Below are positions 28,701-45,983 of a stretch of 64,000 nt of DNA, one piece after another. A program made the translations under genes and the position numbers. This stretch comes from Candidatus Kryptoniota bacterium (GTDB taxonomy: Bacteria; Bacteroidota; Ignavibacteria; Kryptoniales; JAKASW01). The notes beneath the pieces are model-generated. The model saw only the letters and a list, made by a program, of their open reading frames with translations. It made no database searches and had not been told where the DNA came from. The stretch lies in NCBI GenBank assembly GCA_046706365.1, contig JBJKPN010000083.1, forward strand, positions 7,541 to 71,540, given 5' to 3'. Positions within the stretch are counted from its first letter, which is position 1; the number at the start of each line of letters is the position of its first letter.

Positions 28701-29102
28701 GACAGCAAGAGCCGTAACATCGGAATTTTCAGGCATTCCTGAATTAACCTCAGTCCATGTCATTCCCTCGTCGGTAGAAAGTATGATACCGTGCATTTCT
28801 CCAACACCGCCCCGGTTTGCTCCGACAAAGAGGTTTAAGCCTCTCGTTCCATTGGAAGAAATGATGACGGCATTTATCCATGTCCCATCATCCAGCCCCA
28901 GCTTAGTCCAGCTCGAGCCTCCGTTAGTAGAGCAAAAGAGCCCATCACCGTATGCCCCTGCGAAGATCTTTGTATCTGATACGGCAATACTCTTAAAGTA
29001 TCCGCCACAGAAGGGACCGGTTTGCACCCACTGTGCCCGAGTCTCGCCTGCTGAAAGGGCGAGAAGAAGAAGCAACATCGTAGTCGAGCCGATTGCTTTC
29101 AT
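22719..29102 (-). CDS. Giant (2127 aa) secreted surface protein: BNR/Ycf48-like propeller repeats, 2 x (CBM-like + FN3-like) modules, LamG domain, long unknown region, T9SS-type C-terminal domain
   Basis: Signal peptide MKAIGSTTMLLLLLALSAGETRAQ. More than a dozen S-x-D/N-x-G-x-S/T-W repeats (STNGGSSWTK, STDEGMTWTE, STDNGTTWAS ...). LamG-like block MTVEAWICPF...YDGSSVKIYVNGQL...IDEVRLWN. C-terminus NYPNPFNPATTIDYQL...GVYFYRIEAG...KKMLLVK. AAGGAG ribosome-binding site 8 nt before the ATG. Confidence 0.85.
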   Translation of the reverse strand: MKAIGSTTMLLLLLALSAGETRAQWVQTGPFCGGYFKSIAVSDTKIFAGAYGDGLFCSTNGGSSWTKLGLDDGTWINAVIISSNGTRGLNLFVGANRGGVGEMHGIILSTDEGMTWTEVNSGMPENSDVTALAVSPVPAGGSNLFAATNGAGLFVSTNNGSTWSEADNGLGHPYISSLIVSGSNIYAGCDYGGVFVSTDNGTTWASANSGLTNIYVTALAASADGTNIFAGTEGGIFLSINNGASWTAVSNGLTNLHIRSIVVSGTNVFAGTDGGGIFLSTNNGTSWSPMNTGLTFPYAYALAVIPNSTGNPTLVAGTWGSGIFVSGNNGTSWTSANTGLIPRCLNDLAVSGTNIIVGTNGCGALISSNNGASWNPANTGNSSPNVYALAVSHNRNGAANLIADAARIILSSDNGESWTQANTGNFSPGDCHALSVSNDGTDSVRILAGNQALDIQQDEVFISVDNGMNWTKYGTNINASRFNAIAASGASLFAGTNQGVFRTTDEGATWIQVNNGLTSTDVVALISFGSALFAGTDGGGLVVSNDGGMSWTQVNGLRANCGVFSLKVHGAYLFAGTSDGVYLTADSGRTWIQATVVPGFGGVRSLSFSGENLFVIAGSNEVYWTPISGLIPSTHLVTFQADMSALNASGFNPLTDSIVVNGSFNNWNSTQRMSISSNPNLYIWSVSISASTGREIEYKFKAFLDSKFQNNGWESGNNRMFTLAEKDTVLSVVQPRIEVNSSGGSLPTVSTTAASEIGSQSAAVNGYVNPNGSETTVWFGIGYSSGSLNSTPSQNVGSGSTSLPVSFTWESLTPSTKYYFQLVAQNSAGTQWGNIDSFTTLPATGTTHLVTFQADMSALIAAGFIPTADSIVVNGSFNAWSSQQRMTQSFGHPSLFTYTVPMIAEAGQGIQYKFKAFPDSKFENGGWESEDNRRYEFADRDTILSPVQPRISVKPGWISIAAATNPATSVTSTSAVLNGSVNPCGFATTAWFEWGTSSSLETYNTMAVQTIGAGTSPVAVTANLTGLNPSTTYYYRVAGQNSTGSQVGSIESFTTAGDNSFLFDGTSGRVRITDASPANANANPSAYIITGNAMTVEAWICPFGFPADTAGNSIVHRPIAFTDNDPGTFRLFIKQAGGTNQAAFSISDGTPSNVVAAIAPGAIPIFEWTHLAGTYDGSSVKIYVNGQLAGSLPASIQIGQGDVGLYIGMLRSQRFEGLIDEVRLWNVPLTQTEIQAAMNTELTGEEAGLAGYWSMNSTFNENVVGDATPNHNDLIAQSTQVVPVSHLSVPCPVSYSVGQVSLDFGTMELHYPTTRTLSIHNTGSCPLVGCVESSLSSPQTFLVTGGDENALQVSLSPSVVGSVSGDIVVRVLGGQPSPVSFTISGITPRRFDGNNIAMLTMRDGRFAQDPNNHPSGGGLEWPKGSGKKSVYMAGIWASAMVGGSLRTATAWYWSEFSPGPIVNGAAANPNDTAYHVYKIQSGDNALTNPDYKFWPAGLGAPVNSDGTPRIIGNQTLFSVYNDLGTDIRHFGTAPLGAEVQQTIFGFNQPDARANTVFLRFKVVNKSTLAWKNTYLAIWSDPDLGDATDDLTGVDTLRSLAFVYNGTNPDTAYGMSPPAVGFDVLKGAFYARPIQSFAYFLNGTTYPRSDPSTGAEAYYFMQGRWADGTPYTDPLGGFTTFPLSGDPVAGTGWIDTNPGDRRIVLSTGPFDLEPGQSKEIIAAIVMGQGASNLNSLTVVRGEADQIRSLFDSGEIFGGALENVASATIPADSTRTIDDIANSGAQLTATGGSDGATVETSSYAGPPPGAKDIATPSIAGVGKYLDVQVEGEVAWPVGIKIYYTRNDLIQAGVVESDLQGLYYWSGASNSWNLYSNSGDDDQGRGPSTTWVDTVNVNINGVSYEGFVAADAYHLTGIVAGANRKSLKDRYEEVIRYAASLPDSDYKKPGLVRKAAIAAELAASYLLEKSGKFKNAAQRLVENVINHLTLKGHSDENVWVTYEPARLILLKMVSDLADLLQRPQAPNSNVVNGPQAIEMEKIPEEYGLSQNYPNPFNPATTIDYQLPVSGNVTLTVYDILGREVATLVSGYESAGYKSIRFDAGMLPSGVYFYRIEAGSYYQVKKMLLVK
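25937..27203 (-). repeat. Intragenic tandem duplication, 2 x 639 nt (213 aa) units inside the giant gene
   Basis: Unit 1 begins at THLVTFQADMSALNASGFNP (27203 downward). Unit 2 begins at THLVTFQADMSALIAAGFIP (26564 downward). Both continue DSIVVNGSFN.W.S.QRM ... YKFKAF.DSKF.N.GWES ... and end with an FN3-like module closing in ..SFTT. Confidence 0.85.
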
Positions 29103-31454: not shown

Positions 31455-32357
31455 GTGTTTACCGGATTTTCTCTCTTGTTTGCGGCCGGGGTGACAGCGG
31501 GCTTCCTTGGTTCGCTGGTCGGCATAGGGGGCGGCGTTATTATCGTGACCGTCCTGACACTCTACTTTCACTACTCAATTCACGTTGCGATTGCTGCCAG
31601 CCTCGTGTGTGTTATGGCGACTTCGATCGCCGCGGCGCTCCGCTACGTCAGGCAACGAATTGCCGACGTCCGCCTGGGAATGTTCCTCGAAATGGCCTCG
31701 ACAACAGGAGCTTTCGCGGGCGCTTTCATCGGCGTCTTGTTGAGTGCCTATGTTCTCAGCTTGATATTCGGAGCTTTCCTCCTGTATACGGCCGCCAGGT
31801 CAATACCGAGAAAGAACAACAGAGGGATCGATGACTATTCCCGAAGCGGGCAAAAGCGGGGGCCGGAAGAGGGACAAGATTCGAACAGGAGTGCGAAGAG
31901 CATACTGGAAGGCGGGAGTTACTACGACAAAGCCCTCAAAGCAAACGTCCATTACCGCCCTTCAGGAACGATAGTCGGTCCGCTGGTAATGTCGCTTGGA
32001 GGATTGGCCTCAGGTTTGCTCGGCATCGGGGGAGGCGTTATCAATGTGGCCGCGATGAACTCCATCATGAAGGTCCCGGTGAAAGTCTCAATAGCTACAA
32101 GCCAATTCATGATAGCAGTTACTGCCGCAACCGGCGCAGTCGTGTATTTTATTGCGGGAGGAGTGAACTTCTACGTTGTTGCGCCGGCCGCCCTCGGCAC
32201 GATGCTGGGTTCGACTCTCGGAAGCCTCTCCATGAACAAGCTGCCGGTAAAAGTTATCAAGACGATTTTTCTCGTACTGCTCGTCTATTTCGGGTATCAA
32301 ATGATTGCAAAGGGAATTCTGATGGGATTTGGATTCAGGCTTCCGGGAATTGTCTGA
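31455..32357 (+). CDS. TSUP-family (TauE/SafE, DUF81) anion transporter, divergent fifth copy
   Basis: 300 aa. GFLGSLVGIGGGVIIV in the first half and GLLGIGGGVINVAAM in the second half (the duplicated 4-TM DUF81 pattern). GTG start. Confidence 0.8.
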   Translation: MFTGFSLLFAAGVTAGFLGSLVGIGGGVIIVTVLTLYFHYSIHVAIAASLVCVMATSIAAALRYVRQRIADVRLGMFLEMASTTGAFAGAFIGVLLSAYVLSLIFGAFLLYTAARSIPRKNNRGIDDYSRSGQKRGPEEGQDSNRSAKSILEGGSYYDKALKANVHYRPSGTIVGPLVMSLGGLASGLLGIGGGVINVAAMNSIMKVPVKVSIATSQFMIAVTAATGAVVYFIAGGVNFYVVAPAALGTMLGSTLGSLSMNKLPVKVIKTIFLVLLVYFGYQMIAKGILMGFGFRLPGIV

Positions 32358-32744: not shown

Positions 32745-33422
32745 GTGAAAAAGGACAACAGGCGTGCATATTTCCCAATTCTCATAGATCTCAGGAGATA
32801 CCCGTGCCTCGTGGTTGGCGGCGGGCGTGTCGCATTGCGAAAGGTAATGTCGCTCCTCGAATTCAATGCTAAGGTGACTGTGGTTGCGCCCAGAATCTGC
32901 AAAGAGCTCGCCCGGCTCTCTGCCGGCGGTCGGATCGACGTTATCAGGACTCCTTATTCCAGGAAGCACATCTCCGGGCACAAGATCGTGTTCAGCGCAA
33001 CTGACAATCGTGAGATAAATGAAGCCGTGAGCCGCGACTGCCGCAATGAGGGTATTCTGATGAACGTTGCGGATGCTCCTGACCTGTGCGATTTCATCAT
33101 GCCGGCCACTTTGAAGCGTGGAGACCTGGTCGTTTCGGTTTCTTCGCAGGGACGGGCTCCATTTTACACTAAGCACACGAAGCGGAAACTCGAAAAAGTC
33201 CTTACGCCTTCCGAGGCCGAGATAACGGAACTGGCAGGTTACTTCAGGAATCGATTACTGTCGAAGGAGAACAGCGATATATCACGGAGGACCAAAGATA
33301 TCGCGATCAGGAAATTCCTCTCAACAGATTGGGTGTCGATCATAGCGGCAGGAGGAAGCAAGAAAGCGCATGAGTTTGCGGATAGACTCCTCAAAGAAGT
33401 GAATAAGCAGAAGGATCTTTAG
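32745..33422 (+). CDS. sirC: Siroheme synthase N-terminal-domain type enzyme (precorrin-2 dehydrogenase / sirohydrochlorin ferrochelatase)
   Basis: 225 aa. YFPILIDLRRYPCLVVGGGRVALRKV Rossmann motif, NVADAPDLCDFIMPA and LVVSVSSQGRAP blocks as in the CysG N-domain, SirC and Met8. GTG start. Confidence 0.85.
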   Translation: MKKDNRRAYFPILIDLRRYPCLVVGGGRVALRKVMSLLEFNAKVTVVAPRICKELARLSAGGRIDVIRTPYSRKHISGHKIVFSATDNREINEAVSRDCRNEGILMNVADAPDLCDFIMPATLKRGDLVVSVSSQGRAPFYTKHTKRKLEKVLTPSEAEITELAGYFRNRLLSKENSDISRRTKDIAIRKFLSTDWVSIIAAGGSKKAHEFADRLLKEVNKQKDL

Positions 33423-33430
33423 GTGCTCAT

Positions 33431-34018
33431 ATGAACGGTTCTTCGCAGCATCTCAAGGCGAAAGTAATATTCTCACTGTCGACGATAATTGTTCTGATCC
33501 TCTGCAGCGGTGCACTCGCCTGGGTGATAACGCAGCGTATCGAGCAGAGCGAGAGGACGACGGACACGGCACACATGTTCAAGGAAGCCGAGCTCCAGCT
33601 GAGAAGAGAGGAGAAGAACCTTTTGATAAGGGGTTATTCGGCGGAGAGATTTCATCGCTGGCAGGAGGCGAAAGGTGAGTTCTATCAAAAGCTCGGAGAG
33701 CTGATCGGGCAGAAGGCGGTCAGCGATGTCGAAATCGCCGAATTCAAGTCGGACAATTCGGAAATGTCCGATGCATACAGGAGTTTCTTCGATGACATCA
33801 AGTCCGGGACACTGACCGAGACGGAGGCAGCGGCATATGACCTGCATTTCAAGACAATCGGCCAGAGGTCTATAGGAAGAATCGACAGCATTCTTGCAAG
33901 GGAAGAAAGTATTTCAAAAGGCATGGATTCGAGGGCAAATCTGTTGACCGCGGTTTTCTTCCTCGTCTTCATAGGGACAACTTCATTTCTGGTCATCAAC
34001 GTACTGAGGAGTCTGTGA
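33431..34018 (+). CDS. Hypothetical two-TM protein with a helical periplasmic (sensor-like) domain and no output domain
   Basis: 195 aa. TM near the N-terminus (VIFSLSTIIVLILCSGALAWVI) and at the extreme C-terminus (LLTAVFFLVFIGTTSFLVINVL). About 130 aa of helix-prone sequence lie between them. The stop overlaps the cobA start (GTGA). Confidence 0.6.
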   Translation: MNGSSQHLKAKVIFSLSTIIVLILCSGALAWVITQRIEQSERTTDTAHMFKEAELQLRREEKNLLIRGYSAERFHRWQEAKGEFYQKLGELIGQKAVSDVEIAEFKSDNSEMSDAYRSFFDDIKSGTLTETEAAAYDLHFKTIGQRSIGRIDSILAREESISKGMDSRANLLTAVFFLVFIGTTSFLVINVLRSL

Positions 34019-35331
34019 CAGTGAAGTACCGTAAAGGAAGAGTGTATTTGGTGGGGGCCGGTCCCGGCGATCCCGGGCTGATCACCGTGAAAGGCCTCGA
34101 AAAGCTGAAACAGGCGGATGCAGTGGTCTACGACAGGCTGGTAAACGACGACTTGCTTTGCTATTGCCGGGAAGATTGCGAGAAAATTTTCGTCGGAAAA
34201 GAAAGTGGATTCCACCCTGTCGAGCAGGAACAGATAACCGAAATACTGATACGGAAGTCCGAGCTCGGTTTGGATGTCGTGCGGTTGAAGGGGGGCAACC
34301 CCTTCATATTCGGAAGAGGCTCGGAAGAGGCAATTGCCCTGGCTCGTGCAGGGATCGACTTCGAAATCATCCCGGGAATCACTTCGGGACTGTCGGCGCC
34401 GGTCTACAGCGGTATACCGATAACCCACCGAGGCATGATAACTCAGTGTGTTCTGATTACGGCACATGAATCGCCCGGCAAGCCGGGCACCCAGGTGGAA
34501 TGGGATAAACTGGCGAAGCTGAAGAATTCAACCCTTGTCATTTATATGGGAGCATCCAGAATTGAAAACATCTGCAGAGAGCTGATCAGTCACGGGGCAG
34601 ACCCGTCAACTCCTGCGGCAGTCATTGAAAACGGCACCCTTCCCAGTCAGCGAACGATCACTGCGAGGCTCGACAATATCGCCGATGAATTCAAGGCGAA
34701 CGGTTTCCATGCTCCGGCAATAATAATGATCAGCCCGACCGTAGCCATGAGGAATGAGATATCCTGGTACGAAAACAAGCCGCTGTTCGGGAAGAGGATT
34801 GCACTTGTCGGGAACAGGAATCAGCTAGAATTGCTGAGTAGTATGGTTTACGACCTCGGCGGAGAGCCGCTGCGGATTCAACTGTCGAATCCGGATTCAC
34901 TACGCACCCTGTTCCACGGCGGCGTAGAGAGCGAGGAGGAGATCTTTTGCGCAAACGACGAATTCCCTTCAAACGGCCCTCGCTACCCGTATGAAGGTTT
35001 GAATGATAACCAACTCCCGCTGGTTTCAGTGCAGAGAACGGCGGATCAATTATACGAGGAACCCCGTGCAGACATAATCGAAGATCTGTGCGAAAACGGT
35101 GCTGATGCGTTTGTATTTGCCTCCTCAAAGGCGGCAGAGAGCTTCTTCGATACTTTGGGACGACCAAAAGGAACGAAGATGATCGAACATACTGCCGTCG
35201 TGGCGGTGAGCAGGGCCGCTGCAAATTTATTGGCCGAGAGCGGCTTGCGCGCGATCAGATACCCCTCGGACTGCACCGCGGGGGCCCTTCACGATTTGCT
35301 TCTGAACCTTTTTTCCAATACTCAGGAATGA
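34015..35331 (+). CDS. cobA/hemD: Uroporphyrinogen-III C-methyltransferase fused to a HemD-like (uroporphyrinogen-III synthase) C-terminal region
   Basis: The N-terminus GRVYLVGAGPGDPGLITVKG is the SUMT signature, and VVRLKGGNPFIFGRG is present. About 190 extra C-terminal residues start at KPLFGKRIALVGNRN and resemble HemD. Confidence 0.8.
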   Translation: MTVKYRKGRVYLVGAGPGDPGLITVKGLEKLKQADAVVYDRLVNDDLLCYCREDCEKIFVGKESGFHPVEQEQITEILIRKSELGLDVVRLKGGNPFIFGRGSEEAIALARAGIDFEIIPGITSGLSAPVYSGIPITHRGMITQCVLITAHESPGKPGTQVEWDKLAKLKNSTLVIYMGASRIENICRELISHGADPSTPAAVIENGTLPSQRTITARLDNIADEFKANGFHAPAIIMISPTVAMRNEISWYENKPLFGKRIALVGNRNQLELLSSMVYDLGGEPLRIQLSNPDSLRTLFHGGVESEEEIFCANDEFPSNGPRYPYEGLNDNQLPLVSVQRTADQLYEEPRADIIEDLCENGADAFVFASSKAAESFFDTLGRPKGTKMIEHTAVVAVSRAAANLLAESGLRAIRYPSDCTAGALHDLLLNLFSNTQE

Positions 35332-36407
35332 ACGTATTCAGCATCTACCTGCCAGCAGCGGGTATTCACTTCAATGCTCTCCTGTTGCTCCTGATCGGAT
35401 TCTGCGTCGGTGTAATCGGAGGGTTCTTTGGAGTGGGAGGCGGTTGGATAATCACTCCCGCACTCAACATTTTCGGATTTCATATGGCGTTCGCGATCGG
35501 GACGGGGCTGTCCGATATATTCGGACAGTCACTCGGGGCGATACGCAAACACAATCGAATGGGCAATGTCGACTGGAAGCTCGGATCATTTTCGATTGTC
35601 GCCTCGCTCATCGGATTCGAAGCGGGTTCCCGAATCGTGATGGCGCTCGAAAGAGCCGGCGATGTCGGAACAATTGTCCGGTGGTGTTACGTCGTATTCC
35701 TGGCGGGCCTCGGCGCCTTCATGTTCTATGACTATTTCGTTTTGCACGGCCGACAACTTGAACGCATCGAGAAAGGACTGACTGAGGCAGGCACTTCTGC
35801 AGACGGGACATCCGGCCCGGCCAGCGTCGCGAAGAAACTTCATAACATCAAGCTCGCTCCCATGATCTCCTTCCCGGATTCAAATATCGAGAAGGTTTCG
35901 CTTTGGGTAATTATCGCAATTTTCCTCGGCACGGGACTCCTCTCGGGTGTACTCGGGATCGGAGGAGGTTTCATAATACTTCCGGCGCTGGTTTACCTGA
36001 TAGGCGTCCCCACGGTTATAGCCGTTGGCACCACCCTTATGACAGTGCTTGCAACCGCTGCGTTCGGATGTTTCTCGTATGCACTTGACGGAAAAGTGGA
36101 AATGCTTGCCGCCGTACTGATGCTCCTCGGTGCATCTATCGGAGCCCAGATCGGGGCAACCGCCATCAAGTTCATCAAAGGTTACGGCATCAGGCTGCTA
36201 TTCGCGATAATGATCGTCTTCACGAGTTTCTCCGTCATAACGGAGCAGTTCTACAAGATGACTCTGGAATCGATATTCCGCGTGTTCTCAGGGATCATCC
36301 TGGTCGGGACGGCATTGGCCATGACTGTGACGATAATCTCGAAGCTGGTAACCGAATTCAGGAAAGAGAACGCGGGCAAGTCGGGAATCACAGACAGGGC
36401 TTCATAA
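35328..36407 (+). CDS. TSUP-family (TauE/SafE, DUF81) membrane protein, array copy 1
   Basis: 359 aa. Duplicated DUF81 GxGGG motifs. The ATG overlaps the cobA/hemD stop (ATGA). Confidence 0.85.
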   Translation: MNVFSIYLPAAGIHFNALLLLLIGFCVGVIGGFFGVGGGWIITPALNIFGFHMAFAIGTGLSDIFGQSLGAIRKHNRMGNVDWKLGSFSIVASLIGFEAGSRIVMALERAGDVGTIVRWCYVVFLAGLGAFMFYDYFVLHGRQLERIEKGLTEAGTSADGTSGPASVAKKLHNIKLAPMISFPDSNIEKVSLWVIIAIFLGTGLLSGVLGIGGGFIILPALVYLIGVPTVIAVGTTLMTVLATAAFGCFSYALDGKVEMLAAVLMLLGASIGAQIGATAIKFIKGYGIRLLFAIMIVFTSFSVITEQFYKMTLESIFRVFSGIILVGTALAMTVTIISKLVTEFRKENAGKSGITDRAS

Positions 36408-36423
36408 AAAGCAGAGTGGGATT

Positions 36424-37461
36424 GTGAGCATAATTAACATTCATCTGCCGGTAGCGGGGATCGAGTTTAGTGCGGTCCTACTGATACTCATCGGTTTCTG
36501 CGTCGGAGTACTCGGCGGATTCTTCGGAGTTGGTGGAGGATGGATGATAACTCCGGCTCTGAATATTTTCGGTTTTCATATGGCATTCGCGATCGGCACT
36601 CCTCTGGCGGATATCTTCGGACAATCTATCGGAGCCGTAAGGAAGCACCACAAGATGGGAAATATCGACTGGAAACTGGGGCTGATTTCCATCACTACCT
36701 CCATTATCGGTGTGGAGATTGGCTCGAGAGTGATAATCGCCCTCGAGAAGGAGGGAGATGTTGGGTTAATCGTGAGGTGGTCATACATCTTTTTGCTCCT
36801 GGTTCTCGGCGCATACATGCTCTACGACTATTTCGTGATTCATCCGAGACAGTTGACTATTGAAGGCAGCGGGCAATTGCCGGGCACAACGAGGTTTGCG
36901 GCCCGCTTGCAAAGAATTACTATACCTCCCATGCTCTCCCTGCCGACTTCCGGAATAGACGGGGTTTCGCTTTGGATCATCCTATTTGTTTTCCTGATCA
37001 CAGGTTTTCTCTCCGGGTTCATGGGTGTTGGAGGCGGCTTCATTATCCTCCCTGTACTCGTATACCTTATCGGCCTTCCCACCACTATTGCCGTCGGGAC
37101 GAGCCTGGTCACAGTTCTGTTCACCGCAGCGTATGGGTGCTTCACCTACGCCATAAAAGGGCGGGTCGAGATCATCGCGGCATTCATTATGCTGCTCGGC
37201 GCATCGGTCGGCGCCCAGGTCGGTGCAACTGCGATTAGATATATCAAAGGATACGGCATACGGCTCCTTTTTGCCACGATGATAATCCTTGCGGGCTTTT
37301 CCATCATAACTGAACAATTCTACAAAACCACGGGTAAGCCGTTGTTCCAGACCCTTGCCGGCATCGTCCTCATGGGCACGGCGGTGGCAATGTCTGCTCT
37401 CATCATTGTCAGGCTGGTGAGAGAATCCAGAAGAGAGCGGTCGACAGCGGAGTCTGCATGA
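36424..37461 (+). CDS. TSUP-family membrane protein, array copy 2
   Basis: 345 aa. Same conserved blocks as copy 1. GTG start 16 nt after copy 1. Confidence 0.85.
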   Translation: MSIINIHLPVAGIEFSAVLLILIGFCVGVLGGFFGVGGGWMITPALNIFGFHMAFAIGTPLADIFGQSIGAVRKHHKMGNIDWKLGLISITTSIIGVEIGSRVIIALEKEGDVGLIVRWSYIFLLLVLGAYMLYDYFVIHPRQLTIEGSGQLPGTTRFAARLQRITIPPMLSLPTSGIDGVSLWIILFVFLITGFLSGFMGVGGGFIILPVLVYLIGLPTTIAVGTSLVTVLFTAAYGCFTYAIKGRVEIIAAFIMLLGASVGAQVGATAIRYIKGYGIRLLFATMIILAGFSIITEQFYKTTGKPLFQTLAGIVLMGTAVAMSALIIVRLVRESRRERSTAESA

Positions 37462-37494
37462 CAAACCCGATTGAATTTCAAGACGACTTGTCCT

Positions 37495-38562
37495 ATGAGC
37501 ATTTTTGATATTCGTTTGCCCGTTGCAGGAATTGAATTCAGCGCTTTGCTGCTGATACTTATCGGGTTTTGTGTCGGCGTGCTCGGCGGGTTCTTTGGTG
37601 TCGGCGGAGGGTGGATTGTGACCCCGGCGCTGAACATTTTTGGTTTCCACATGGCGTTCGCTATCGGGACCGATCTGGCCAACATTTTCGGTCAATCAAT
37701 CGGTGCAGTGAAGAAACACCAGAAGATGGGGAACATCGACTGGAAACTCGGTTCCATTTCCATAATCACATCCGTTATCGGTCTCGAAATGGGCTCCGAT
37801 GTGGTTATTGCGCTCGAGAAAGCCGGAGATATAGGCATCATCATAAGATGGTGCTACATGTTCATGTTAAGCGTGCTGGGGTGCTACATGCTGTACGACT
37901 ACTTCGTCCTTCGAAAGAGGGCCAGGAAAGACAGCGGCACAGCGTCTGAAGACGGGGACGCGCTCAATACGGGCAGCGTCGAGAATCGAAGCAAGGTTTC
38001 GAAGAGGCTTCACAAATTGAATATACCGCCGATGATCTCGTTCCCTTCCTCGGGAATCGAGGGAGTCTCACTCTGGATCATACTTCTCATCTTTCTCTTT
38101 ACCGGATTCATGTCCGGTTTCATGGGAGTTGGGGGTGGGTTCATCATCATGCCGGCCCTGGTCTACCTCATAGGTCTCCCGACGGCAGTTGCGGTCGGGA
38201 CGAGCCTGATAACGGTGCTGTTCAGCGGAGCCTACGGGTGCTTCACCTACGCTATGAAGGGACGCGTGGAAGTAATTGCCGCGTTCATAATGCTGATCGG
38301 CGCTTCCATAGGAGCCCAGATCGGCGCGACGGCAGTCAGGTATGTTGAAGGATACGGGATCAGAATACTTTTTTCGCTGATGATTCTGCTCGCGGCCGTT
38401 TCGGTCGCTGCGGAGCAGCTGTACAAGATCACCGGAAGGGCGCTCTTTCAATCCACCGCCGGGATAGTGCTGATGGGAACCGCCGTGGCAGTATCGGCTG
38501 CGATAATCGGCAAGCTGGTCGTGAAATCAAGGAAAGAAGCAAAAGACAGGGCAACACACTAA
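37495..38562 (+). CDS. TSUP-family membrane protein, array copy 3
   Basis: ATG 37495 (MSIFDIRLPVAGIEF...) aligns with the N-termini of the other copies. The track ORF starts at TTG 37471. Confidence 0.85.
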   Translation: MSIFDIRLPVAGIEFSALLLILIGFCVGVLGGFFGVGGGWIVTPALNIFGFHMAFAIGTDLANIFGQSIGAVKKHQKMGNIDWKLGSISIITSVIGLEMGSDVVIALEKAGDIGIIIRWCYMFMLSVLGCYMLYDYFVLRKRARKDSGTASEDGDALNTGSVENRSKVSKRLHKLNIPPMISFPSSGIEGVSLWIILLIFLFTGFMSGFMGVGGGFIIMPALVYLIGLPTAVAVGTSLITVLFSGAYGCFTYAMKGRVEVIAAFIMLIGASIGAQIGATAVRYVEGYGIRILFSLMILLAAVSVAAEQLYKITGRALFQSTAGIVLMGTAVAVSAAIIGKLVVKSRKEAKDRATH

Positions 38563-38583
38563 ATTCACTAACAGGGCTGAAGC

Positions 38584-39636
38584 ATGAATCTCTTCGACAT
38601 CTACTTACCGATCGCAGGAATAGAGTTCAATGTTCTGTTGCTCATTCTGATCGGGTTCTGCGTTGGAGTACTCGGCGGGTTTTTCGGAGTCGGCGGAGGT
38701 TGGATTGTCACTCCCGCTCTCAACATCTTCGGATTCCATATGGCATACGCAATCGGAACTGATCTGGCCAATATCTTCGGGCAGTCCATAGGTGCCACCA
38801 AGAAACATCACAAGATGGGAAATATCGACTGGAAACTCGGTTCCATCTCGATCGTCGCATCGATCGTAGGTCTCGAACTCGGCTCACAGCTCGTGATAAG
38901 GCTCGAGCACGCGGGCGACGTCGGATCTGTAGTCAGGTGGTGCTACCTGTTCCTCATGTTCGGACTCAGCACATTGATGTTTCGCGATTATTACAAGTCG
39001 CATCCGAGGCAGAAGCACGGCGCGACAGCGTCCGGGAGGGATAATTACCCGGGGCCGCGGAAGGGCGGGAAAACGCTTGCCGAAAGACTCCACAGCATAA
39101 ACATTCCTCCGATGATATCGTTTCCGACATCGGACATTCAATCGGTTTCCCTGTGGACTGTCATGTTCATATTTGCGGTGACCGGCTTTCTTTCCGGGTT
39201 CCTGGGGGTCGGAGGAGGATTCATTAGAATGCCGGCTCTCGTTTACCTCATAGGAGTGCCGACAGTAATCGCAGTGGGGACCGACCTGATGACGGTTTTG
39301 ATCACAGGTGCGTACGGCTGCTTCACCTACGCGATGAAAGGAAGAGTTGAATTCATCGCAGCCTTTTTCATGCTGATCGGCGCTTCGATCGGCGCCCAAA
39401 TCGGGGCAACGGCCGTCAAATACGTGAAAGGATACGGGATCAGGCTGCTCTTCGCAATAATGATTGCGTTTGCAGGATGCTCGATAGCACTTGAGCAGCT
39501 CTACAAAATGACCGGTGAAGAAGTCCTGGGTACGGCAGCGGGACTGGTTCTCATGCTGACTGCTGTAACGCTGACTTCTATTATTATTTTAAGGCTCACG
39601 GTTGAAGCCCGTAAAGAGAGGAAGATGAGAGGCTGA
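38584..39636 (+). CDS. TSUP-family membrane protein, array copy 4
   Basis: 350 aa. MNLFDIYLPIAGIEFNVLLLILIGFCVGVLGGFFGVGGGW... Confidence 0.85.
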   Translation: MNLFDIYLPIAGIEFNVLLLILIGFCVGVLGGFFGVGGGWIVTPALNIFGFHMAYAIGTDLANIFGQSIGATKKHHKMGNIDWKLGSISIVASIVGLELGSQLVIRLEHAGDVGSVVRWCYLFLMFGLSTLMFRDYYKSHPRQKHGATASGRDNYPGPRKGGKTLAERLHSINIPPMISFPTSDIQSVSLWTVMFIFAVTGFLSGFLGVGGGFIRMPALVYLIGVPTVIAVGTDLMTVLITGAYGCFTYAMKGRVEFIAAFFMLIGASIGAQIGATAVKYVKGYGIRLLFAIMIAFAGCSIALEQLYKMTGEEVLGTAAGLVLMLTAVTLTSIIILRLTVEARKERKMRG

Positions 39637-39715
39637 AATGGATTCAGAAGAGTCAAGAGATATTCATACATTAGAAAACACCAAAGCCAACAACAGGCTT
39701 CGGAAGGAGCGGACC

Positions 39716-40039
39716 ATGTCAATCAAGAGGACGGTTTCCATAGTGGCGTTTTCTTTCGTGCTGGTATGCGCCATGCCTTACGCAGAAAGATTGTGTGCCA
39801 GCGCGTACGCGAGCGAGATCGGAGGCAAGAGCGAATCGTCGCTTCAGAAGAGGATAGACACAAAGAACATGACGGGAGTCGACCTGCTGATCGCCAACCT
39901 GTACAACGATGACAGATTAATGTACGCAGTCATGGTAACGCTGGTCATGGCCGGGCTCGGCACAACCCTGGCCTTTCTGACCGATCTCGTCCTGAAGATG
40001 CTGGGCGTCGAGGTAACGCGGATTTCTCATCGAGAGTGA
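39716..40039 (+). CDS. Small hypothetical protein: signal peptide plus a single C-terminal TM helix
   Basis: 107 aa counted from ATG 39716, which has an AAGGAG site 6 nt upstream. MSIKRTVSIVAFSFVLVCAMPYA is signal-like. The C-terminal hydrophobic helix is YAVMVTLVMAGLGTTLAFLTDLVL. The track ORF starts at 39638. Confidence 0.55.
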   Translation: MSIKRTVSIVAFSFVLVCAMPYAERLCASAYASEIGGKSESSLQKRIDTKNMTGVDLLIANLYNDDRLMYAVMVTLVMAGLGTTLAFLTDLVLKMLGVEVTRISHRE

Positions 40040-40162: not shown

Positions 40163-41704
40163 ATGAAAAAAGTCAAGTCCCTGAGTATATCCACACGTAT
40201 TTCCCTGCTGCTGGGATTGATCATCCTTGTTACTATGGGCACGTTCTCGATTTTCAGCCTCGTGAAACAGGAACAAGATTCCGTGGACTCTCTGAGCCGC
40301 AGTACTCTTTTGCTCAGTCAGACTACCGAGAAGATACTTAGACTCAGCATGTTGAAAAACCGGCGCGACGAAATTTCCATGGCGATAAAGAGCATCGTCG
40401 GAGAAGAGGGGATCCAATCCGTAAGGATTCTCAACCATAACGGTGTTATCAAGTTCTCCTCCAGGCAATCGGAAATCGACGAACATATCTCGAGAACAAA
40501 TCAGCTTTGCTCCAACTGCCACGTTGAAAACGACACCGCCATGATCCACCCCGTCAGTGGTTTTTACAGCTATCACTTCAACCACAAGAACGATATGATT
40601 TACAGTTCCCTTCCAATCTATAACTCACGAAGCTGCTATACGGGGGACTGTCATGCGACCGGGGCGAACGAGGCGTCGGTCGCACCGCCTGACTTGACGG
40701 CCCGAGCCGTCCACGATTCGTCGCAGACCATACTCGGATTCATAGAGATAGAAGTGTCCGCGAAAGAGATAATGTCCAACATCGACAGGACCCGTTCGGA
40801 GCTCATCCTGCTCACTGTACTAATAGCTCTCCTTGCGTCGACCGTCGCTTACTTTTCCATACGACGACTCGTCGGGAATCCCGTCAGGAAGCTTGTCGAG
40901 GGAACGAAGAGAGTCGCACAAGGAGATTTCGGCAGCGAGATTCCTTCCGGCGAAGCTGAAATAGGAATCCTCGCGGATTCGTTCAACACGATGCAGAGGC
41001 AGCTCCTTGCCACCCAATCGCAGTTGATTGAATCGGAGAAACTCGCTTCGGTCGGCAAACTGGCAGACGAGATCGCAAGCGAAATAAACAATCCCCTGAC
41101 AGGGATAATAGTCTATTCGGAAAGCCTGATCGAAGAATCGGAACCCGGGACACATGTCAGGGAAGATTTCGAAGTGATTCTTCAGGAAGCGCTCAAGATA
41201 AGGGAAAGCGTCAGAAACATCCTGTCGCTTGCGAGGAAGGAAAAACCGATCTTCGTGCCCGTCGAACTCGACGGCATAGTCAATCACGCAGTCTCGATTC
41301 TGAAGAAGCTCTCGAATTTCAGGAACATCAGGATAGTTACGGCCATTCCCCGGGTATTCCCGAAAGTGTCTGCGGATCCGGGACTCCTGCAACAGGTTTT
41401 CCTCAACCTGTTTCTTGTCTTCGCGGACAACATGCGGACCGGTGGAATACTGAGGGTTTCTGCTTCGCATCTCGAGCAGGAAGGAGCAGTGGAGATAAGG
41501 CTTTCAGCTACCGGTGGGGAGATATCCTGGCATATTATGGATGCCTTGTCTGAACAGGGTGCCGTCGACGATGCAGGCCACATCGAAAAGTCAAGGATCA
41601 GTCTTTCAGTTTGCCGGGATATCGTCGCGCTTCACAGGGGAAGAATTTACGCAAGCGTAGAATCGGAAGCGGAGCCCTCCGTGGTTATAGAGTTGCCTGC
41701 GTAA
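40163..41704 (+). CDS. HAMP-containing sensor histidine-kinase-like protein. The periplasmic domain carries CxxCH and Cx4CH motifs. The kinase core is degenerate (probable pseudokinase)
   Basis: 513 aa. TM1 at aa 12-33 and TM2 at aa 213-233. CSNCH at 40508-40522 and CYTGDCH at 40634-40654. HAMP after TM2. The H-box reads LASVGKLADEIASEINNPL, with Ser (AGC 41078-41080) where His is expected. N-box QVFLNLFLVFADNM, G1 LSATGGEI and G2 KSRISLSV all lack the consensus N, D and G residues. Confidence 0.8.
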   Translation: MKKVKSLSISTRISLLLGLIILVTMGTFSIFSLVKQEQDSVDSLSRSTLLLSQTTEKILRLSMLKNRRDEISMAIKSIVGEEGIQSVRILNHNGVIKFSSRQSEIDEHISRTNQLCSNCHVENDTAMIHPVSGFYSYHFNHKNDMIYSSLPIYNSRSCYTGDCHATGANEASVAPPDLTARAVHDSSQTILGFIEIEVSAKEIMSNIDRTRSELILLTVLIALLASTVAYFSIRRLVGNPVRKLVEGTKRVAQGDFGSEIPSGEAEIGILADSFNTMQRQLLATQSQLIESEKLASVGKLADEIASEINNPLTGIIVYSESLIEESEPGTHVREDFEVILQEALKIRESVRNILSLARKEKPIFVPVELDGIVNHAVSILKKLSNFRNIRIVTAIPRVFPKVSADPGLLQQVFLNLFLVFADNMRTGGILRVSASHLEQEGAVEIRLSATGGEISWHIMDALSEQGAVDDAGHIEKSRISLSVCRDIVALHRGRIYASVESEAEPSVVIELPA

Positions 41705-41705
41705 C

Positions 41706-42101
41706 ATGGCTGAAAAGGTAAAAATACTCGCCATCGACGGAGAGGATATAGTCCTCAGGTCGATAGCTAAGGCGCTCAGGCCGGACGAGAATACCGAGTA
41801 CGCAGTGACAACCGCAAACAATGCGATCGAAGGCCTTAAATTGGTGCGGGGCAATGTGTTTGAGGTGATATTCGTCGATTCCGTTCTGGCCGGCATGAAT
41901 ACCGAGGAAGCATTACGGAGAATCAAGAACACCTGCCCATCCGCCTCGGTTATTTTAATGTCCGGCTATTCGTCCCAACCCTCTGGCGTCGACCGGGACT
42001 TCGGAGATGCGGATGGCCTGCTGTCCAAGCCTTTTTCGGGTTCGGAGATTAGGTCCCTGATATCACGTATATTAAATGAGCGCAAAGGTCGAAGTGAATA
42101 G
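41706..42101 (+). CDS. Stand-alone response-regulator receiver domain
   Basis: 131 aa. KILAIDGEDIV (DD pair reduced to DG), IFVDSVLAGM (D58 acceptor), VILMSG (S86), LSKPF (K108). No output domain. Confidence 0.8.
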   Translation: MAEKVKILAIDGEDIVLRSIAKALRPDENTEYAVTTANNAIEGLKLVRGNVFEVIFVDSVLAGMNTEEALRRIKNTCPSASVILMSGYSSQPSGVDRDFGDADGLLSKPFSGSEIRSLISRILNERKGRSE

Positions 42102-42148: not shown

Positions 42149-44800
42149 GTGACGATATTCAAGAATATATTCAGCCGAAAAAGAGCCGAACCGGTTTCGT
42201 TCAAGGATAAGCTCCATCACTTCCAGCGGCTTCTATTTTCCAACGACGAGGCCCTGAAACTAATGGGGAGTCTCAGCGAAATCATAGTTTCGGGAAAGCC
42301 ATTCTCAAAAGGGGACATATTTCCATTCTATTCCGATATACTGACAAATATCGAACAGGTGACCCGGCACCTTTCAGCCATGTGCGGCGGCAGATACAGG
42401 ACGCTTGCCTCCCGGGTTAAAAAGATTAGGGCAGACTGCGATAGCCAACTCGCGCCCGCTCCGTTTTGTCAGGAAAGGTGGGCGTGTGAAAAGGCCAATT
42501 GTGACGGGTGTGAAAAGCGGTCATATCCTGTCCAGGACTCGCCATACTCTTACCGCGTGGACGAGATAACTTACAACCACACACGTGAAGTCGGCGGCAA
42601 GATGAGCCGGCTTTGCGAGGTACATAACCGGTTGGATATTCCCGTCCCGGACGGATTTTGCCTCACGGCCAAGTGTTTCGAAGACTTCCTATCGCAGGAT
42701 GAATTGTATTCAAAGATTGACGAAGCTATATCGTCCATCGATTTCAACGATAATGCCCAGGTCCAGGAGGCGAGCCGGATCATCCAGGCGCTCATCGTGG
42801 CCTCTCCTATTCCGCCCATCATCGAAAGCACCGTTCTCGAAGAATACGATCGCCTTTCGGCCAGGCGCGGTGAGACTCTTGTAGCCGTCAGGTCAAGTGC
42901 CGTCGGGGAGGACGACCTGCATTTTTCGTTTGCCGGATTGCATTATACCGCACTCAATGTAAGCAGGGCTAATCTGGTCGACGCCTGCTTCGAAGTAATG
43001 ATCTCGAAATACCTGCCGCAGTCGCTGGTCTACCGATATATGATGGGCCTCAGAGATGTCGATATGCCTATGAGTATCGGCTGTATGCAGATGCTGGACT
43101 CCGAAGTCAGCGGGGTTCTCTTCACGAAGGACCCTCTGAGAAACAGGGATGAAATAATCATCCAGGCGGTAAGAGGTCTCGGGACTAAAGTGGTTGACGG
43201 AAGCGTGGAGGCACAGGAGTTCATAGTGGAACATTCTGAAAACTGCAGGATGCTTTCGTTCAAGCCCGGCAACCAGGATTATATGGCGACAGCCCGCCCC
43301 ACAGACGGACTGTACGACGAGCAGGTACCCGCCGAATTGAGACGCAAGCCATGTTTGGATGGGAACCAAATCAGGCAGATCGTGGGATACGCTCTCAGGA
43401 TAGAAGAATACTACGGTTCGCCGCAGGATATCGAATGGGCTATCGACGAGGACGGCAAAGTTTACATTCTGCAGTGCAGGCCTCTCGCGGTTTCAGAAGA
43501 GGCAGGCAACCACGAAGAAACAGGACCTCTATCGGAATCAACAGATGTGGAGCGTACTGCATTAATCGACAAGGGCGAATGCGCCAGTCCGGGAATCGGG
43601 TCGGGCAAGGTTTTCCTTTCAAACAGGTCAAGGGATCTTGTGAATTTCCCAACAGGGGGCGTTCTGGTTGTCAGAAAGACCTCACCGGAGTTGACCAGAG
43701 TTCTCCACAAAGCTGCAGGACTTATCGCGGATGTAGGAAACACGACAGGCCATCTTTCAATCATTGCCCGGGAATTGAAAATACCTGTACTTGTGAATAC
43801 GGGCGATGCTACTTCCCGCCTTTCGAACGACATGCCGATAACTGTCGACGCCGGCGCCCACAAGGTCTACCTCGGACTCGAAACACCTGCCCGGCCAGCG
43901 GATTCAGGAAATGTCAATTCGAGCAGCTTCATGCGGAGCCCGATGCACAGAGTATGGAAAAACATAGCCGAGTCGATAATACCTCTCAACCTGACCGATC
44001 CCGACTCTCCTGAATTCTCGCCGGACCACTGCAGGACATTGCACGATGTGACGAGGTTTGCACACGAGTATGCAATGAGGGAGATGTTCTCGCTTTACGA
44101 AGCCGCTGAGGATCAAGACAGGCAGGCATTCCCATTGAGGTTCCCCGTCCCCCTGGACGTCTACGTCATCGACCTCGGAAACGGACTTCAGAAAATAGAA
44201 GGACGGAAGTTCATCACCCCTGAAGACATCACATCCGAACCGTTCAGCTCACTAATCAAAGGGATGACGGCACCCGGCGTCAAGTGGGCGGGGCCGCTCC
44301 CGATCGACCTCAAAGGCTTTACAAACCTTCTGATGGCAAATATCGTCGATGCCGGAAGAAGCGATAGGGCTCTCGGCGGCAGGAGTTACGCGATCATCTC
44401 AGACTGCTACCTGAATTTCTCTTCGAGACTCGGATATCATTTCTCGCGCCTTGACGCTTACGCGAGCGAAGAGATCAACAATAACTATATCAACTTCGAC
44501 TTCCGGGGCGGCGCCGCGGATCCTTTGAGAAGAGTGAGAAGGGCCAGAGTCATAGCAAGGATTCTCGAGCGCTCCAATTTCTCTGTCACCCTGCAGAACG
44601 ACAATGTCCTTGCAACCATAAGGAAGATCTCCGCTTCGGCTATCTACGAGCTGCTGCACGAGATCGGAAGATTGATGGGTGCGGTACGAAATGCCGACGT
44701 TACGCTGATTACTGACGACAGCATAGAACAATTCGTCAACGCTTTTCTCAGCGGAGACCCGGCTCCCGCTATGCGGTTCACCGAAAGGCCTCCTGGCTGA
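42149..44800 (+). CDS. PpsA-like enzyme: Cys-rich N-terminal extension, PPDK_N ATP-grasp domain, PEP-utilizer swivel phosphohistidine domain, about 310-aa C-terminal domain of unknown function
   Basis: 883 aa. GGKMSRLCEV..IPVPDGFCLT, VAVRSSAVGEDDLHFSFAGLHYTALNV, QDIEWAIDEDGKVYILQCRPL (ATP-grasp). LIADVGNTTGHLSIIARELKIPVLV (swivel His). I recognise no PEP-utilizers_C TIM-barrel motifs in the last about 310 aa. N-terminal motif CQERWACEKANCDGCEK. GTG start. Confidence 0.75.
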   Translation: MTIFKNIFSRKRAEPVSFKDKLHHFQRLLFSNDEALKLMGSLSEIIVSGKPFSKGDIFPFYSDILTNIEQVTRHLSAMCGGRYRTLASRVKKIRADCDSQLAPAPFCQERWACEKANCDGCEKRSYPVQDSPYSYRVDEITYNHTREVGGKMSRLCEVHNRLDIPVPDGFCLTAKCFEDFLSQDELYSKIDEAISSIDFNDNAQVQEASRIIQALIVASPIPPIIESTVLEEYDRLSARRGETLVAVRSSAVGEDDLHFSFAGLHYTALNVSRANLVDACFEVMISKYLPQSLVYRYMMGLRDVDMPMSIGCMQMLDSEVSGVLFTKDPLRNRDEIIIQAVRGLGTKVVDGSVEAQEFIVEHSENCRMLSFKPGNQDYMATARPTDGLYDEQVPAELRRKPCLDGNQIRQIVGYALRIEEYYGSPQDIEWAIDEDGKVYILQCRPLAVSEEAGNHEETGPLSESTDVERTALIDKGECASPGIGSGKVFLSNRSRDLVNFPTGGVLVVRKTSPELTRVLHKAAGLIADVGNTTGHLSIIARELKIPVLVNTGDATSRLSNDMPITVDAGAHKVYLGLETPARPADSGNVNSSSFMRSPMHRVWKNIAESIIPLNLTDPDSPEFSPDHCRTLHDVTRFAHEYAMREMFSLYEAAEDQDRQAFPLRFPVPLDVYVIDLGNGLQKIEGRKFITPEDITSEPFSSLIKGMTAPGVKWAGPLPIDLKGFTNLLMANIVDAGRSDRALGGRSYAIISDCYLNFSSRLGYHFSRLDAYASEEINNNYINFDFRGGAADPLRRVRRARVIARILERSNFSVTLQNDNVLATIRKISASAIYELLHEIGRLMGAVRNADVTLITDDSIEQFVNAFLSGDPAPAMRFTERPPG

Positions 44801-44843: not shown

Positions 44844-45983
44844 CTACGGGACCTCGCACTGCAATTGAACCTCGAGAATGTCTCCTGCCCGATTGTCCCT
44901 CCCTCTCCAAATGAGATAGTTGCCCTGCACTCTGACATTTGAAGCGATCAGATACGTAGCTCCGAAAACATAGTCCGTCGAAATCATGTCACGCATGCTC
45001 ACATCGGGATTATAAGTGTCGAAGCGGGCGGCGATCTGCAAGTCTCTCCCGGCCACATAATAGGCGGCCTGCAAGTACCCTCCCCTGCGACTTATCGCCC
45101 CGTCATTTCCGCCGATATACTCCCCGGAGATTTCGAGTGGAGAGTCAGCATAGTCAAACTCGAGTCCGAAGCGAGTCCTCCTGCCGCTGACAGGAGGGCT
45201 GCCCCACACATCAAAACCGTCGTAGTAGGAAACCCCGACATGTATCTCCCGGACGGGTTGGATCACAATTCTCCCGCAAAAATCCTTTGCGTCGTTCCTG
45301 TCCGGCACGTTTATGCCGGAGCCGTTGAAGACACCTGCGGCATATTCCAGCGAGGACGTGCTGTCGCAGCCGGCAAGTCTTCCGCCGACTTGCACTCCGA
45401 CATCCCGCCCGGACTGATTCCCGGCAACGTCGCCACTTCGGGCCACCAAAGACTCCACAACCTGGGAGCGGTCTATGAAATCGAGTCTGGCCGAAGACAT
45501 CAGGTTTTCCCTGGAAAAGGGAATCTTAAATTGGCCGGCCTTCACACGCAAGAACCGAAACGGCGAATAGTCGATATAAGCGTCGAGCAATCTGGGGGAT
45601 GCGGCAAAATCGGCCTGAAAGAAGTAGGACCATGGCTCCGTCACCCTGCCGGCCAGGCTAAACCTCATTCGCCTTATGTCTGCGCTGCTGATCCGGGACG
45701 TATCACCGTCCGATAGTTGATACCTGAGTTGGACATAACCGCCGAAGTGAGGAAGCAAGAGTGGCGCAGAAGATGGTGGGTTCCTTTTGTCTGTAGTGTC
45801 ACTGAAGGGCGAATCAACTTGAGGGTCCCCCGCTTTGCAACCGACCTCCAGTCCGGAGAGCTGAGAAAAGTCCGGCGCAAGGCGGGCGGGATTTGCCCCT
45901 GCACCGGCAGTTAAGAATGAGATTGCAACCGGGATGATCAGGTTAATTCGCATCGGATGATCCGGGAAGGAGATCGCGGGCAA
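44844..45983 (-). CDS. Phosphate-selective porin O/P (OprO/OprP) family outer-membrane anion porin
   Basis: FFQADFAASPRLLDAYIDYSPFRFLRVKAGQFKIPFSRENLMSSARLDFIDRS is a typical Porin_O_P block. The signal peptide begins at the internal Met (ATG 45953, MRINLIIPVAISFLTAGAGA), which is the likelier start. Confidence 0.8.
   Translation of the reverse strand: MPAISFPDHPMRINLIIPVAISFLTAGAGANPARLAPDFSQLSGLEVGCKAGDPQVDSPFSDTTDKRNPPSSAPLLLPHFGGYVQLRYQLSDGDTSRISSADIRRMRFSLAGRVTEPWSYFFQADFAASPRLLDAYIDYSPFRFLRVKAGQFKIPFSRENLMSSARLDFIDRSQVVESLVARSGDVAGNQSGRDVGVQVGGRLAGCDSTSSLEYAAGVFNGSGINVPDRNDAKDFCGRIVIQPVREIHVGVSYYDGFDVWGSPPVSGRRTRFGLEFDYADSPLEISGEYIGGNDGAISRRGGYLQAAYYVAGRDLQIAARFDTYNPDVSMRDMISTDYVFGATYLIASNVRVQGNYLIWRGRDNRAGDILEVQLQCEVP

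Follow-up and report, generated by a model that had tools for sequence, protein, structure and literature searches.

Background

In sensor kinases of the HisKA/HATPase_c type, the histidine of the H-box and the residues of the N, G1 and G2 boxes are needed for autophosphorylation and ATP binding. Here we describe a gene from an uncultured Candidatus Kryptoniota bacterium (assembly GCA_046706365.1, contig JBJKPN010000083.1) that encodes a 513-amino-acid (aa) protein with the build of such a kinase, in which these residues have been replaced and whose periplasmic domain carries two motifs for c-type haem. The gene lies at positions 40163-41704 of a stretch of 64,000 nucleotides, the whole of which was analysed and is referred to below as the window, and it is followed by genes for a single-domain receiver and for a PPDK-like phosphotransferase. 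We believe that this haem-gated pseudo-kinase acts, most likely through binding, on the receiver and by way of it on the PPDK-like enzyme, and we give this reading a probability of about 0.55.

Precedents for the individual features exist singly, as pseudo-histidine kinases, as pseudo-receivers and as haem-c Cache sensors. The first are represented by DivL of Caulobacter crescentus, a cytoplasmic HisKA/HATPase_c protein with PAS domains in which the acceptor His is replaced by Tyr while the rest of the H-box is kept; it reads DivK~P made by other kinases and has been proposed to signal by binding this single-domain receiver (PMC4211667, PMC5361649). Pseudo-receivers have been defined as receivers in which at least one of the DD-D-T/S-K quintet is missing, and according to the same 2025 review the second acidic residue (DD2), which binds the metal directly, is non-acidic in about 80% of them (PMC12632262). 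Among the haem-c sensors, the Geobacter sulfurreducens chemoreceptors GSU0935 and GSU0582 (3b42 and 3b47) have a periplasmic single-Cache fold between two transmembrane (TM) helices, with a covalently bound haem and a distal Met contributed by the N-terminal helix, and the name sCache_heme has since been given to this group of domains (Deshpande et al. 2026, PMC12889525). The distal ligand of GSU0935 is Met60, whose redox-linked binding and release is the proposed sensor switch, and redox-linked on/off switching of Met is a documented mechanism of the Geobacter proteins (PMC8396549). Finally, the Cache_heme-HAMP (CHH) receptor of Pseudomonas azotoformans pairs with a Ser/Thr kinase (bioRxiv 10.64898/2026.05.25.727664).

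Loss of kinase residues in the protein and its clade

The gene and the domains of its product are the following.

40163..41704 (+), pseudo-histidine kinase gene, 513 aa: TM, predicted di-haem Cache, TM, HAMP, DHp-like and CA-like
40199..40264 (+), TM1, residues ~13-34, preceded by a Lys-rich cytoplasmic N-terminus (sequence reading)
40265..40801 (+), periplasmic single-Cache (PDC) domain, residues ~35-213, with two c-type haem motifs (AlphaFold2, Foldseek and family profile)
40802..40861 (+), TM2, residues ~214-233 (sequence reading)
40859..41008 (+), HAMP, residues 233-282 (Pfam, 41.2 bits)
41057..41245 (+), DHp-like domain (HisKA), residues 299-361, with the H-box ASEINNPL (Pfam, 41.6 bits; ZraS alignment)
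41078..41080 (+), AGC codon, Ser306 at the position of the phospho-acceptor His (ZraS alignment and codon readout)
41375..41698 (+), CA-like domain, residues 405-512, with degenerate N, G1 and G2 boxes (HATPase_c, 25.4 bits)

This layout had been proposed in a preliminary description of the locus and is borne out by the Pfam matches to HAMP and HisKA and by the two hydrophobic segments around a domain of about 180 aa. The HAMP linker and the DHp helical hairpin of canonical sensor kinases are present, and the HATPase_c match, at 25.4 bits, is below the Pfam gathering score of 26.4. Residues were assigned by alignment to the best solved relative, ZraS (9jfj). Ser306 stands opposite the phospho-acceptor His (EIASEINNPL, against GVAHEIRNPL in ZraS), the N-box Asn is replaced by Val419 and the G1 Asp by Ala449, with Glu453 at the last Gly of the G1 DxGxG, and the G-T-G-L-G of the ZraS G2 box is matched by K-S-R-I-S. 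The preliminary description had noticed the Ser and the losses in the N, G1 and G2 boxes and had taken the protein for a pseudokinase. The alignments agree on each of these points: neither the profile nor the pairwise alignment places a His at the acceptor site or recovers the ATP residues, and the loss extends through the clade. The protein therefore lacks what defines a canonical HisKA/HATPase_c kinase, namely the acceptor His, the N, G1 and G2 boxes and a HATPase_c score above the gathering value, and since the acceptor His and the Mg-ATP-binding residues are gone, canonical autophosphorylation is predicted to be impossible. What it shows is the DivL pattern, with the acceptor His replaced, the H-box reading A-[N/S/Y/K/V]-E-I-N-N-P-L among orthologues and the DHp otherwise conserved; Tyr, the residue of DivL, is found in two of the orthologues. 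It differs from DivL in its predicted periplasmic haem domain, in its degenerate ATP boxes and in a partner receiver without DD2.

A search of 5.8 billion proteins yielded about 115 full-length homologues at 47-77% identity, and a separate scan of one genome per species yielded 47 genomic loci, all of them from metagenome-assembled genomes (MAGs) labelled Candidatus Kryptoniota, Ignavibacteria/Ignavibacteriaceae or "Bacteroidetes". The nearest proteins, at 77% and 75% identity, were from Kryptoniota MAGs. Across 48 orthologues the acceptor position reads Asn in 39, Ser in three, His and Tyr in two each, and Lys and Val in one each. The loss of His noted in the preliminary description is thus common to the clade, whereas the Ser itself is rare and Asn is the usual residue. 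The N-box Asn is kept in a single orthologue, G2 is degenerate in all 48 and reads G/x-I-S-L, and the G1 Asp is kept in 35 and lost in the small clade to which the window's own protein belongs. Ser306 was also considered as a new phospho-acceptor and rejected: the position reads Ser, Lys and Ser in the closest relatives and Asn in most orthologues, and a residue that varies even among the closest relatives is not expected to accept phosphate. The Ser codon, AGC, is one transition away from AAC, the clade-consensus codon for Asn.

Degenerate kinase domains act as Ser/Thr kinases in plant phytochromes and ethylene receptors, and it could be argued that the protein is an active kinase of non-canonical chemistry, autophosphorylated on another residue or acting on Ser/Thr. 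The conserved CA-like fold, the G1 DxGxG of many orthologues (the Asp in 35, as above) and the His kept in a few members (P0058, P0087, P0089 and P0092) would be in line with this. We find it very unlikely, because the Asn that serves Mg-ATP binding survives in only one of the 48, G2 is lost in all, the G1 Asp is gone as well in the window's own clade, no other His is conserved in the DHp of the clade, and the members that retain the acceptor His have degenerate N, G1 and G2 boxes too. That the gene is a decaying relic without function, to which the lost catalytic residues might point, is hardly credible, since the reading frame is intact, at least 47 orthologues have been retained, gene order around them is fixed and the receiver gene is tightly coupled to it. 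The identities of 47-77%, together with dozens of invariant positions in the HAMP, DHp and CA-like domains, indicate purifying selection on the pseudo-kinase gene, and to judge from this comparison the clade-wide loss of kinase residues is not decay.

Canonical kinases with the same architecture exist outside the clade. Distant relatives of NtrB/ZraS/AtoS type (P0116-P0120 and P0242) share the predicted di-haem periplasmic motifs at 30-38% identity (30-33% for P0116-P0120) and differ in having the H, N, G1 and G2 boxes intact and in occupying other gene contexts. The nearest of these intact kinases (loci L005, L090 and that of P0118) belong to a conserved trio that consists of a protein of about 330 aa, the kinase, and a receiver fused to GCV_H, the glycine-cleavage H-protein domain, which is an unusual output for a response regulator. 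The protein of about 330 aa gave a weak Pkinase match in one locus.

The partner receiver

The gene next to that of the pseudo-kinase starts 2 nt past its stop codon.

41706..42101 (+), single-domain receiver; D58, S86 and K108 are kept and the metal-binding DD2 Asp is replaced by Gly12 (alignment)

The receiver of the window and those of 45 orthologous loci, 46 sequences altogether, were aligned with CheY, Spo0F, PhoB and NtrC. At the position equivalent to CheY Asp13 (DD2), where the window's receiver has Gly12, we found Lys in 16 sequences, Gly in 11, Ser in eight, Arg in four, Glu in three and Asp in one, so that the residue is non-acidic in 39 of the 44 receivers in which the position can be read. 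In CheY, D13K is the classic substitution that makes activity independent of phosphorylation. By the definition given above the partner is a pseudo-receiver with the commonest defect of that group; unlike others it keeps the Asp, Ser/Thr and Lys of the quintet and is a borderline case. Taken locus by locus, every genome except four pairs its degenerate kinase with a receiver whose DD2 is non-acidic. Because the partner receiver, too, is without its metal-binding Asp, phosphotransfer as a whole looks weakened, rather than moved to another donor.

The periplasmic domain

Four sites of the periplasmic domain are relevant to haem binding.

40349..40351 (+), Met63, invariant, predicted distal ligand of haem 2 (aligns with GSU0935 Met60)
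40508..40522 (+), CSNCH, C116-H120, predicted haem site 1, within an insertion (motif and family alignment)
40634..40654 (+), CYTGDCH, C158-H164, of Cx4CH type, predicted haem site 2 (homologous to the solved haem site of GSU0935/GSU0582)
40712..40714 (+), His184, invariant in the clade, candidate distal ligand (second His of the Cx4CHxH of the wider family)

Both Cys motifs had been pointed out in the preliminary description and lie at residues 116-120 and 158-164; they are invariant across the orthologues. An AlphaFold2 model of the domain, built with 76 sequences, had a pLDDT (predicted local distance difference test) score of 81 and the layout of a single Cache (PDC) domain, with N-terminal helices, a five-stranded sheet and a C-terminal helix. 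When this model was compared with the PDB by Foldseek, the matches were the extracellular domains of WalK, DctB, CitA and KinD, with GSU0935 (3b42) at rank 5, and the fold is thus that of the haem-c Cache sensors of the GSU0935/GSU0582/Tll0287 type. A direct Pfam scan gave no haem-sensor family, the only match being a sub-threshold one to sCache_4 (E 0.013), and homology was therefore sought through a profile of the family. The profile, made from 19 trimmed domains, had as its top PDB sequences 3b42 (GSU0935, E 1.6e-5) and 3b47 (GSU0582, E 8e-5). In the resulting alignment the Cx4CH falls on the CxxCH of GSU0935 (Cys140, Cys143 and His144) and Met63 on residue 26 of the 3b42 chain, which is Met60 of GSU0935, while the segment with CSNCH is absent from both Geobacter proteins. 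A variant motif at the position of the family's haem site is thus accompanied by the Met of the distal ligand.

With the periplasmic domain alone as query, HMMER returned 374 cluster representatives. Of the best 150, which were inspected, about 113 had a CxxCH followed some 43 residues later by a Cx3-4CH, and the histidine kinases among these 150 had a normal H-box, AHE[IL]NNPL. Pfam scans of 50 such relatives found HATPase_c in 46, HisKA in 39 and PF21563, a chemoreceptor sensor-domain model, in 17. Met63 and the C, C and H of both motifs were invariant across distant relatives. Most widely in the family, the second motif has the form Cx4CHxH. Members of the window's clade have some 18 extra residues between the CH and the last His of this motif, which is His184 here and a plausible sixth ligand of one of the haems.

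These data suggest that the domain is best treated as a divergent sister family of sCache_heme with two predicted haems. It would share with GSU0935 and GSU0582 a haem-c motif at the homologous position, and would differ from them in having Cx4CH in place of CxxCH, in carrying a second, canonical CxxCH in the extra insertion, and in being joined to a degenerate kinase instead of a chemoreceptor output. The Cys motifs might instead form disulfides or bind a metal in an ordinary ligand-binding Cache domain, in keeping with a Pfam match that names no haem family and with the minority status of Cx4CH among haem motifs. We regard this as quite improbable, given the invariance of both motifs and of Met63 in distant relatives and their alignment on the crystallographic haem site and distal Met of GSU0935 (PMC8396549). 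The organism, moreover, clearly exports c-type cytochromes, as deduced from a DsrJ with three CxxCH motifs encoded in the window (60560-60955). Cx4CH binds haem in Desulfovibrio cytochrome c3. The periplasmic haem sensor of the preliminary description is thereby supported by homology to solved haem-c domains, beyond the motifs on which it was based, and the protein probably binds two haems outside the cell.

The PPDK-like enzyme and the wider module

The third gene of the set encodes an enzyme.

42149..44800 (+), PPDK-like phosphotransferase, 883 aa: N-terminal domain, PPDK_N ATP-grasp, swivel and C-terminal domain

It begins with a conserved N-terminal domain, which is followed by the PPDK_N ATP-grasp, a phosphoenolpyruvate (PEP)-utiliser swivel whose catalytic His lies in TTGH, and a C-terminal domain some 300 aa long; the ATP-grasp motifs and the swivel His are kept. 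The gene was present wherever the contig was long enough, and 43 orthologues were recovered from the 47 loci. The C-terminal domain matched no Pfam family and, going by its AlphaFold2 model and Foldseek, is not a PEP/pyruvate TIM barrel. Desulfobacterota and other anaerobes commonly encode homologues of this domain, with identities of 40-58%. There are also stand-alone proteins, about 409 aa long, that have only the N- and C-terminal parts of the enzyme (P0214, for example). An apparent fusion of the C-terminal domain with a canonical receiver (P0147) was set aside, since it is on a contig of 1.8 kb, has a Met just before the receiver and could represent two genes read as one.

In metagenomes, at least 567 stretches were found to encode PPDK-like homologues, and 80 of these loci were annotated, within the flanks fetched, by locally built hidden Markov models. 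A receiver was found in 48 of the 80, a histidine kinase in 35, TauE in 33 and a DVU0150-family protein in 25; genes of the PPDK-like family (the window's own, L086, L088, L089 and L091-L170) repeatedly adjoin TauE, DVU0150, Usp and kinase-receiver pairs. The kinases and receivers beside the more distant PPDK-like genes were all canonical (His, Asn, DxGxG and GxG in the former; DD, D, T/S and K in the latter), and only loci of the Kryptoniota/Ignavibacteria clade (L092-L096) had Asn or Ser at the His position and a receiver with DK or DS. One Thermodesulfobacteriota locus, in which no catalytic residue has been lost, encodes DVU0150, TauE and Usp, then a dCache-PAS kinase with its receiver, and last the PPDK-like enzyme. 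Because the kinases and receivers of the distant loci are all canonical, the pseudo-kinase and pseudo-receiver of the window are, as this comparison of residues has it, a derived state of a canonical kinase/receiver/PPDK-like module. The PPDK-like enzyme is a regular partner of the kinase-receiver pair and, most simply, its output; since it adjoins intact pairs elsewhere, it is more likely to be this output than a replacement for the kinase, and its role as a replacement phosphodonor was down-weighted because its homologues adjoin intact kinases in nearly all other loci. No relevant paper came up when the literature was searched for PPDK_N in combination with two-component systems.

Genomic setting

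Upstream of the pseudo-kinase the window holds the following genes of the same cluster.

32745..35331 (+), SirC-like dehydrogenase, conserved 195-aa two-TM protein and CobA/HemD fusion, at the head of the cluster (Pfam, conserved order)
35328..39636 (+), four tandem paralogues of TauE/SafE-family permeases, ~350 aa each (Pfam)
39638..40039 (+), DVU0150-family small membrane protein (NCBIfam NF040783; conserved neighbour)

As far as the contigs reach, gene order was constant in 47 of 47 loci: SirC, the 195-aa two-TM protein, CobA (often fused to HemD), two to six TauE copies, the DVU0150-family protein, the pseudo-kinase, the receiver and a PPDK-like enzyme of 850-880 aa. The block is usually followed, on the opposite strand, by QmoC, a CxxCxxCC protein, AprBA and Sat, and the window also encodes QmoAB and DsrMKJOP. 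These flanking sat, apr, qmo and dsr genes place the pseudo-kinase system within a core dissimilatory sulfur island. The TauE paralogues may carry sulfate, sulfite or thiosulfate; a fifth one, of 300 aa, lies upstream of the run of four (31455-32357).

The 195-aa protein (33431-34018), between SirC and CobA/HemD, is kept in 40 of the 47 loci and had no Pfam match even when E values as high as 10 were allowed. Its helical middle is flanked by two terminal TM helices, which gives it the look of a sensor module that lacks an output domain. A gene of the phosphate-selective porin O/P family (44844-45983, minus strand) separates the PPDK-like gene from QmoC and occupies this place in only a few of the orthologous loci (L008, L011 and L014). 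Two other open reading frames of the minus strand were recorded, one of 137 aa (61051-61464) between DsrK and DsrJ of DsrMKJOP and one of 2127 aa (22719-29102).

In some Ignavibacteria loci (L001, 12658-14205 on the minus strand, which is the same as L022; L019, L034, L038 and L047) a second kinase, a canonical receiver and TauE are encoded on the opposite strand just past the PPDK-like gene. The sensor domain of this second kinase is of another kind and has no haem motifs. Its H-box is VANELNNPL in one genome, with Asn for His and the N, G1 and G2 boxes intact, while the other four have His.

Signalling by contact or by phosphate

According to the reading that we favour, a change in the redox state or ligand of the haems would, much as in GSU0935, alter how Met63 is ligated and how the N-terminal helix packs, and this shift would be relayed via TM2 and HAMP to the DHp-like coiled-coil bundle. 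The DHp/CA-like surface would then bind or release the co-transcribed receiver, which in turn would control the PPDK-like ATP-dependent phosphotransferase, and the latter may act on something connected with the TauE/DVU0150 membrane proteins. An old two-component switch would thus probably signal now mainly by protein contacts. The likeness to DivL is here one of linkage only, the receiver gene being 2 nt downstream and the PPDK-like gene next to it in all loci. The proposal also resembles the CHH system, in which a periplasmic haem-c Cache sensor without enzymatic output of its own signals through a cytoplasmic phosphotransfer enzyme that is encoded in the operon and physically associated with it. 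CHH, however, stops after HAMP and has a PknB-like kinase as its partner, whereas the window's protein keeps a full dead DHp/CA module and has as partners a receiver and a PPDK-like enzyme with ATP-grasp and swivel His.

Several observations weigh against this reading. The equivalent of CheY Asp57, the phospho-acceptor, is kept in 44 of the 46 receivers, that of the active-site Thr87 is Ser or Thr in 44, and that of the active-site Lys109 is present in all 46. In the pseudo-kinase, Glu+1 and Asn+4 of the H-box, which are residues of phosphatase type, are retained in 44 and 47, respectively, of the 48 orthologues. Such a combination is the pattern expected if receiver phosphorylation still matters. 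In addition, the window's periplasmic domain matched neither PF11845 (DUF3365/Tll0287) nor PF21563 at E up to 10, the AlphaFold2 model of the PPDK-like C-terminal domain (pLDDT 83) had no significant match in the PDB by Foldseek, and haem attachment, the binding of partners and the inability to bind ATP are each predicted.

The retained residues lend themselves to another explanation, that of a DivL-like scaffold or phosphatase, in which Asp58 of the receiver still gets its phosphate from elsewhere (from acetyl phosphate, from a histidine kinase encoded at another locus or from the PPDK-like enzyme with its phospho-His) and the haem-gated pseudo-kinase binds or dephosphorylates receiver~P. In canonical HisKA kinases the H-box Glu+1 and Asn+4 serve phosphatase activity, so that their retention amounts to a kept phosphatase motif, and NtrB H139N, reportedly a phosphatase-only mutant, is a laboratory precedent for His to Asn. 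With the near invariance of Asp58, Ser86 and Lys108, the conserved swivel His of the neighbouring enzyme, the canonical kinase-receiver pair nearby in some Ignavibacteria loci and the binding of DivK~P by DivL (PMC4211667), this makes the explanation the main rival of our reading, though we hold it to be less likely. With a non-acidic DD2 in 39 of 44 receivers, Mg-dependent phosphotransfer and dephosphorylation should be badly impaired; the PPDK-like homologues that adjoin intact kinases elsewhere are no substitute for a lost kinase; and no further kinase or receiver gene is present in the 64-kb window. A more specific proposal has the PPDK-like enzyme, by its swivel phospho-His, and the receiver, by its Asp, exchange phosphate directly, with the di-haem pseudo-kinase left only to set the flux as a scaffold or phosphatase under redox control. 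If true, it would mean a phosphorelay in which an ATP-grasp/PEP-utiliser enzyme takes the place of the histidine kinase as the source of phosphate, and a link between periplasmic redox and TauE-dependent sulfur-anion handling in sulfate-respiring Kryptoniota and Ignavibacteria; we think it improbable. The preliminary description had left the choice between scaffolding and another phosphodonor. Of these we favour signalling by binding, and we give less weight to a second donor in view of the receiver without DD2 and of PPDK-like genes placed beside intact kinases.

Significance

In the open-access literature we found no description of the clade, of the joint loss in both partners, of the di-haem variant or of the kinase/receiver/PPDK-like/TauE/DVU0150 module. 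A kinase-receiver pair in which phosphotransfer residues have been lost from both members, fixed in a lineage and with intact sister systems, thus appears to be undescribed, as do the predicted di-haem version of Cache_heme, which occurs in hundreds of protein clusters, and the widespread module itself, present in at least 567 metagenome stretches. The joint loss represents a natural experiment on how the wiring of a two-component system turns independent of phosphorylation.

The cluster DVU0145-0150 of Desulfovibrio vulgaris is induced in syntrophy (PMC4265775), and the literature that we found on it contains expression data only. The idea that DVU0151 and DVU0152 encode a HAMP protein and a relative of PEP synthase was rejected, DVU0151 being a sigma-54 activator. 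Since DVU0145-0150 includes the namesake of the DVU0150 family, a genetically tractable relative may exist. The module probably regulates sulfur-anion transport or activation, and its position amid the sat-apr-qmo-dsr genes of uncultured sulfur-respiring bacteria makes it relevant to the sulfur cycle.

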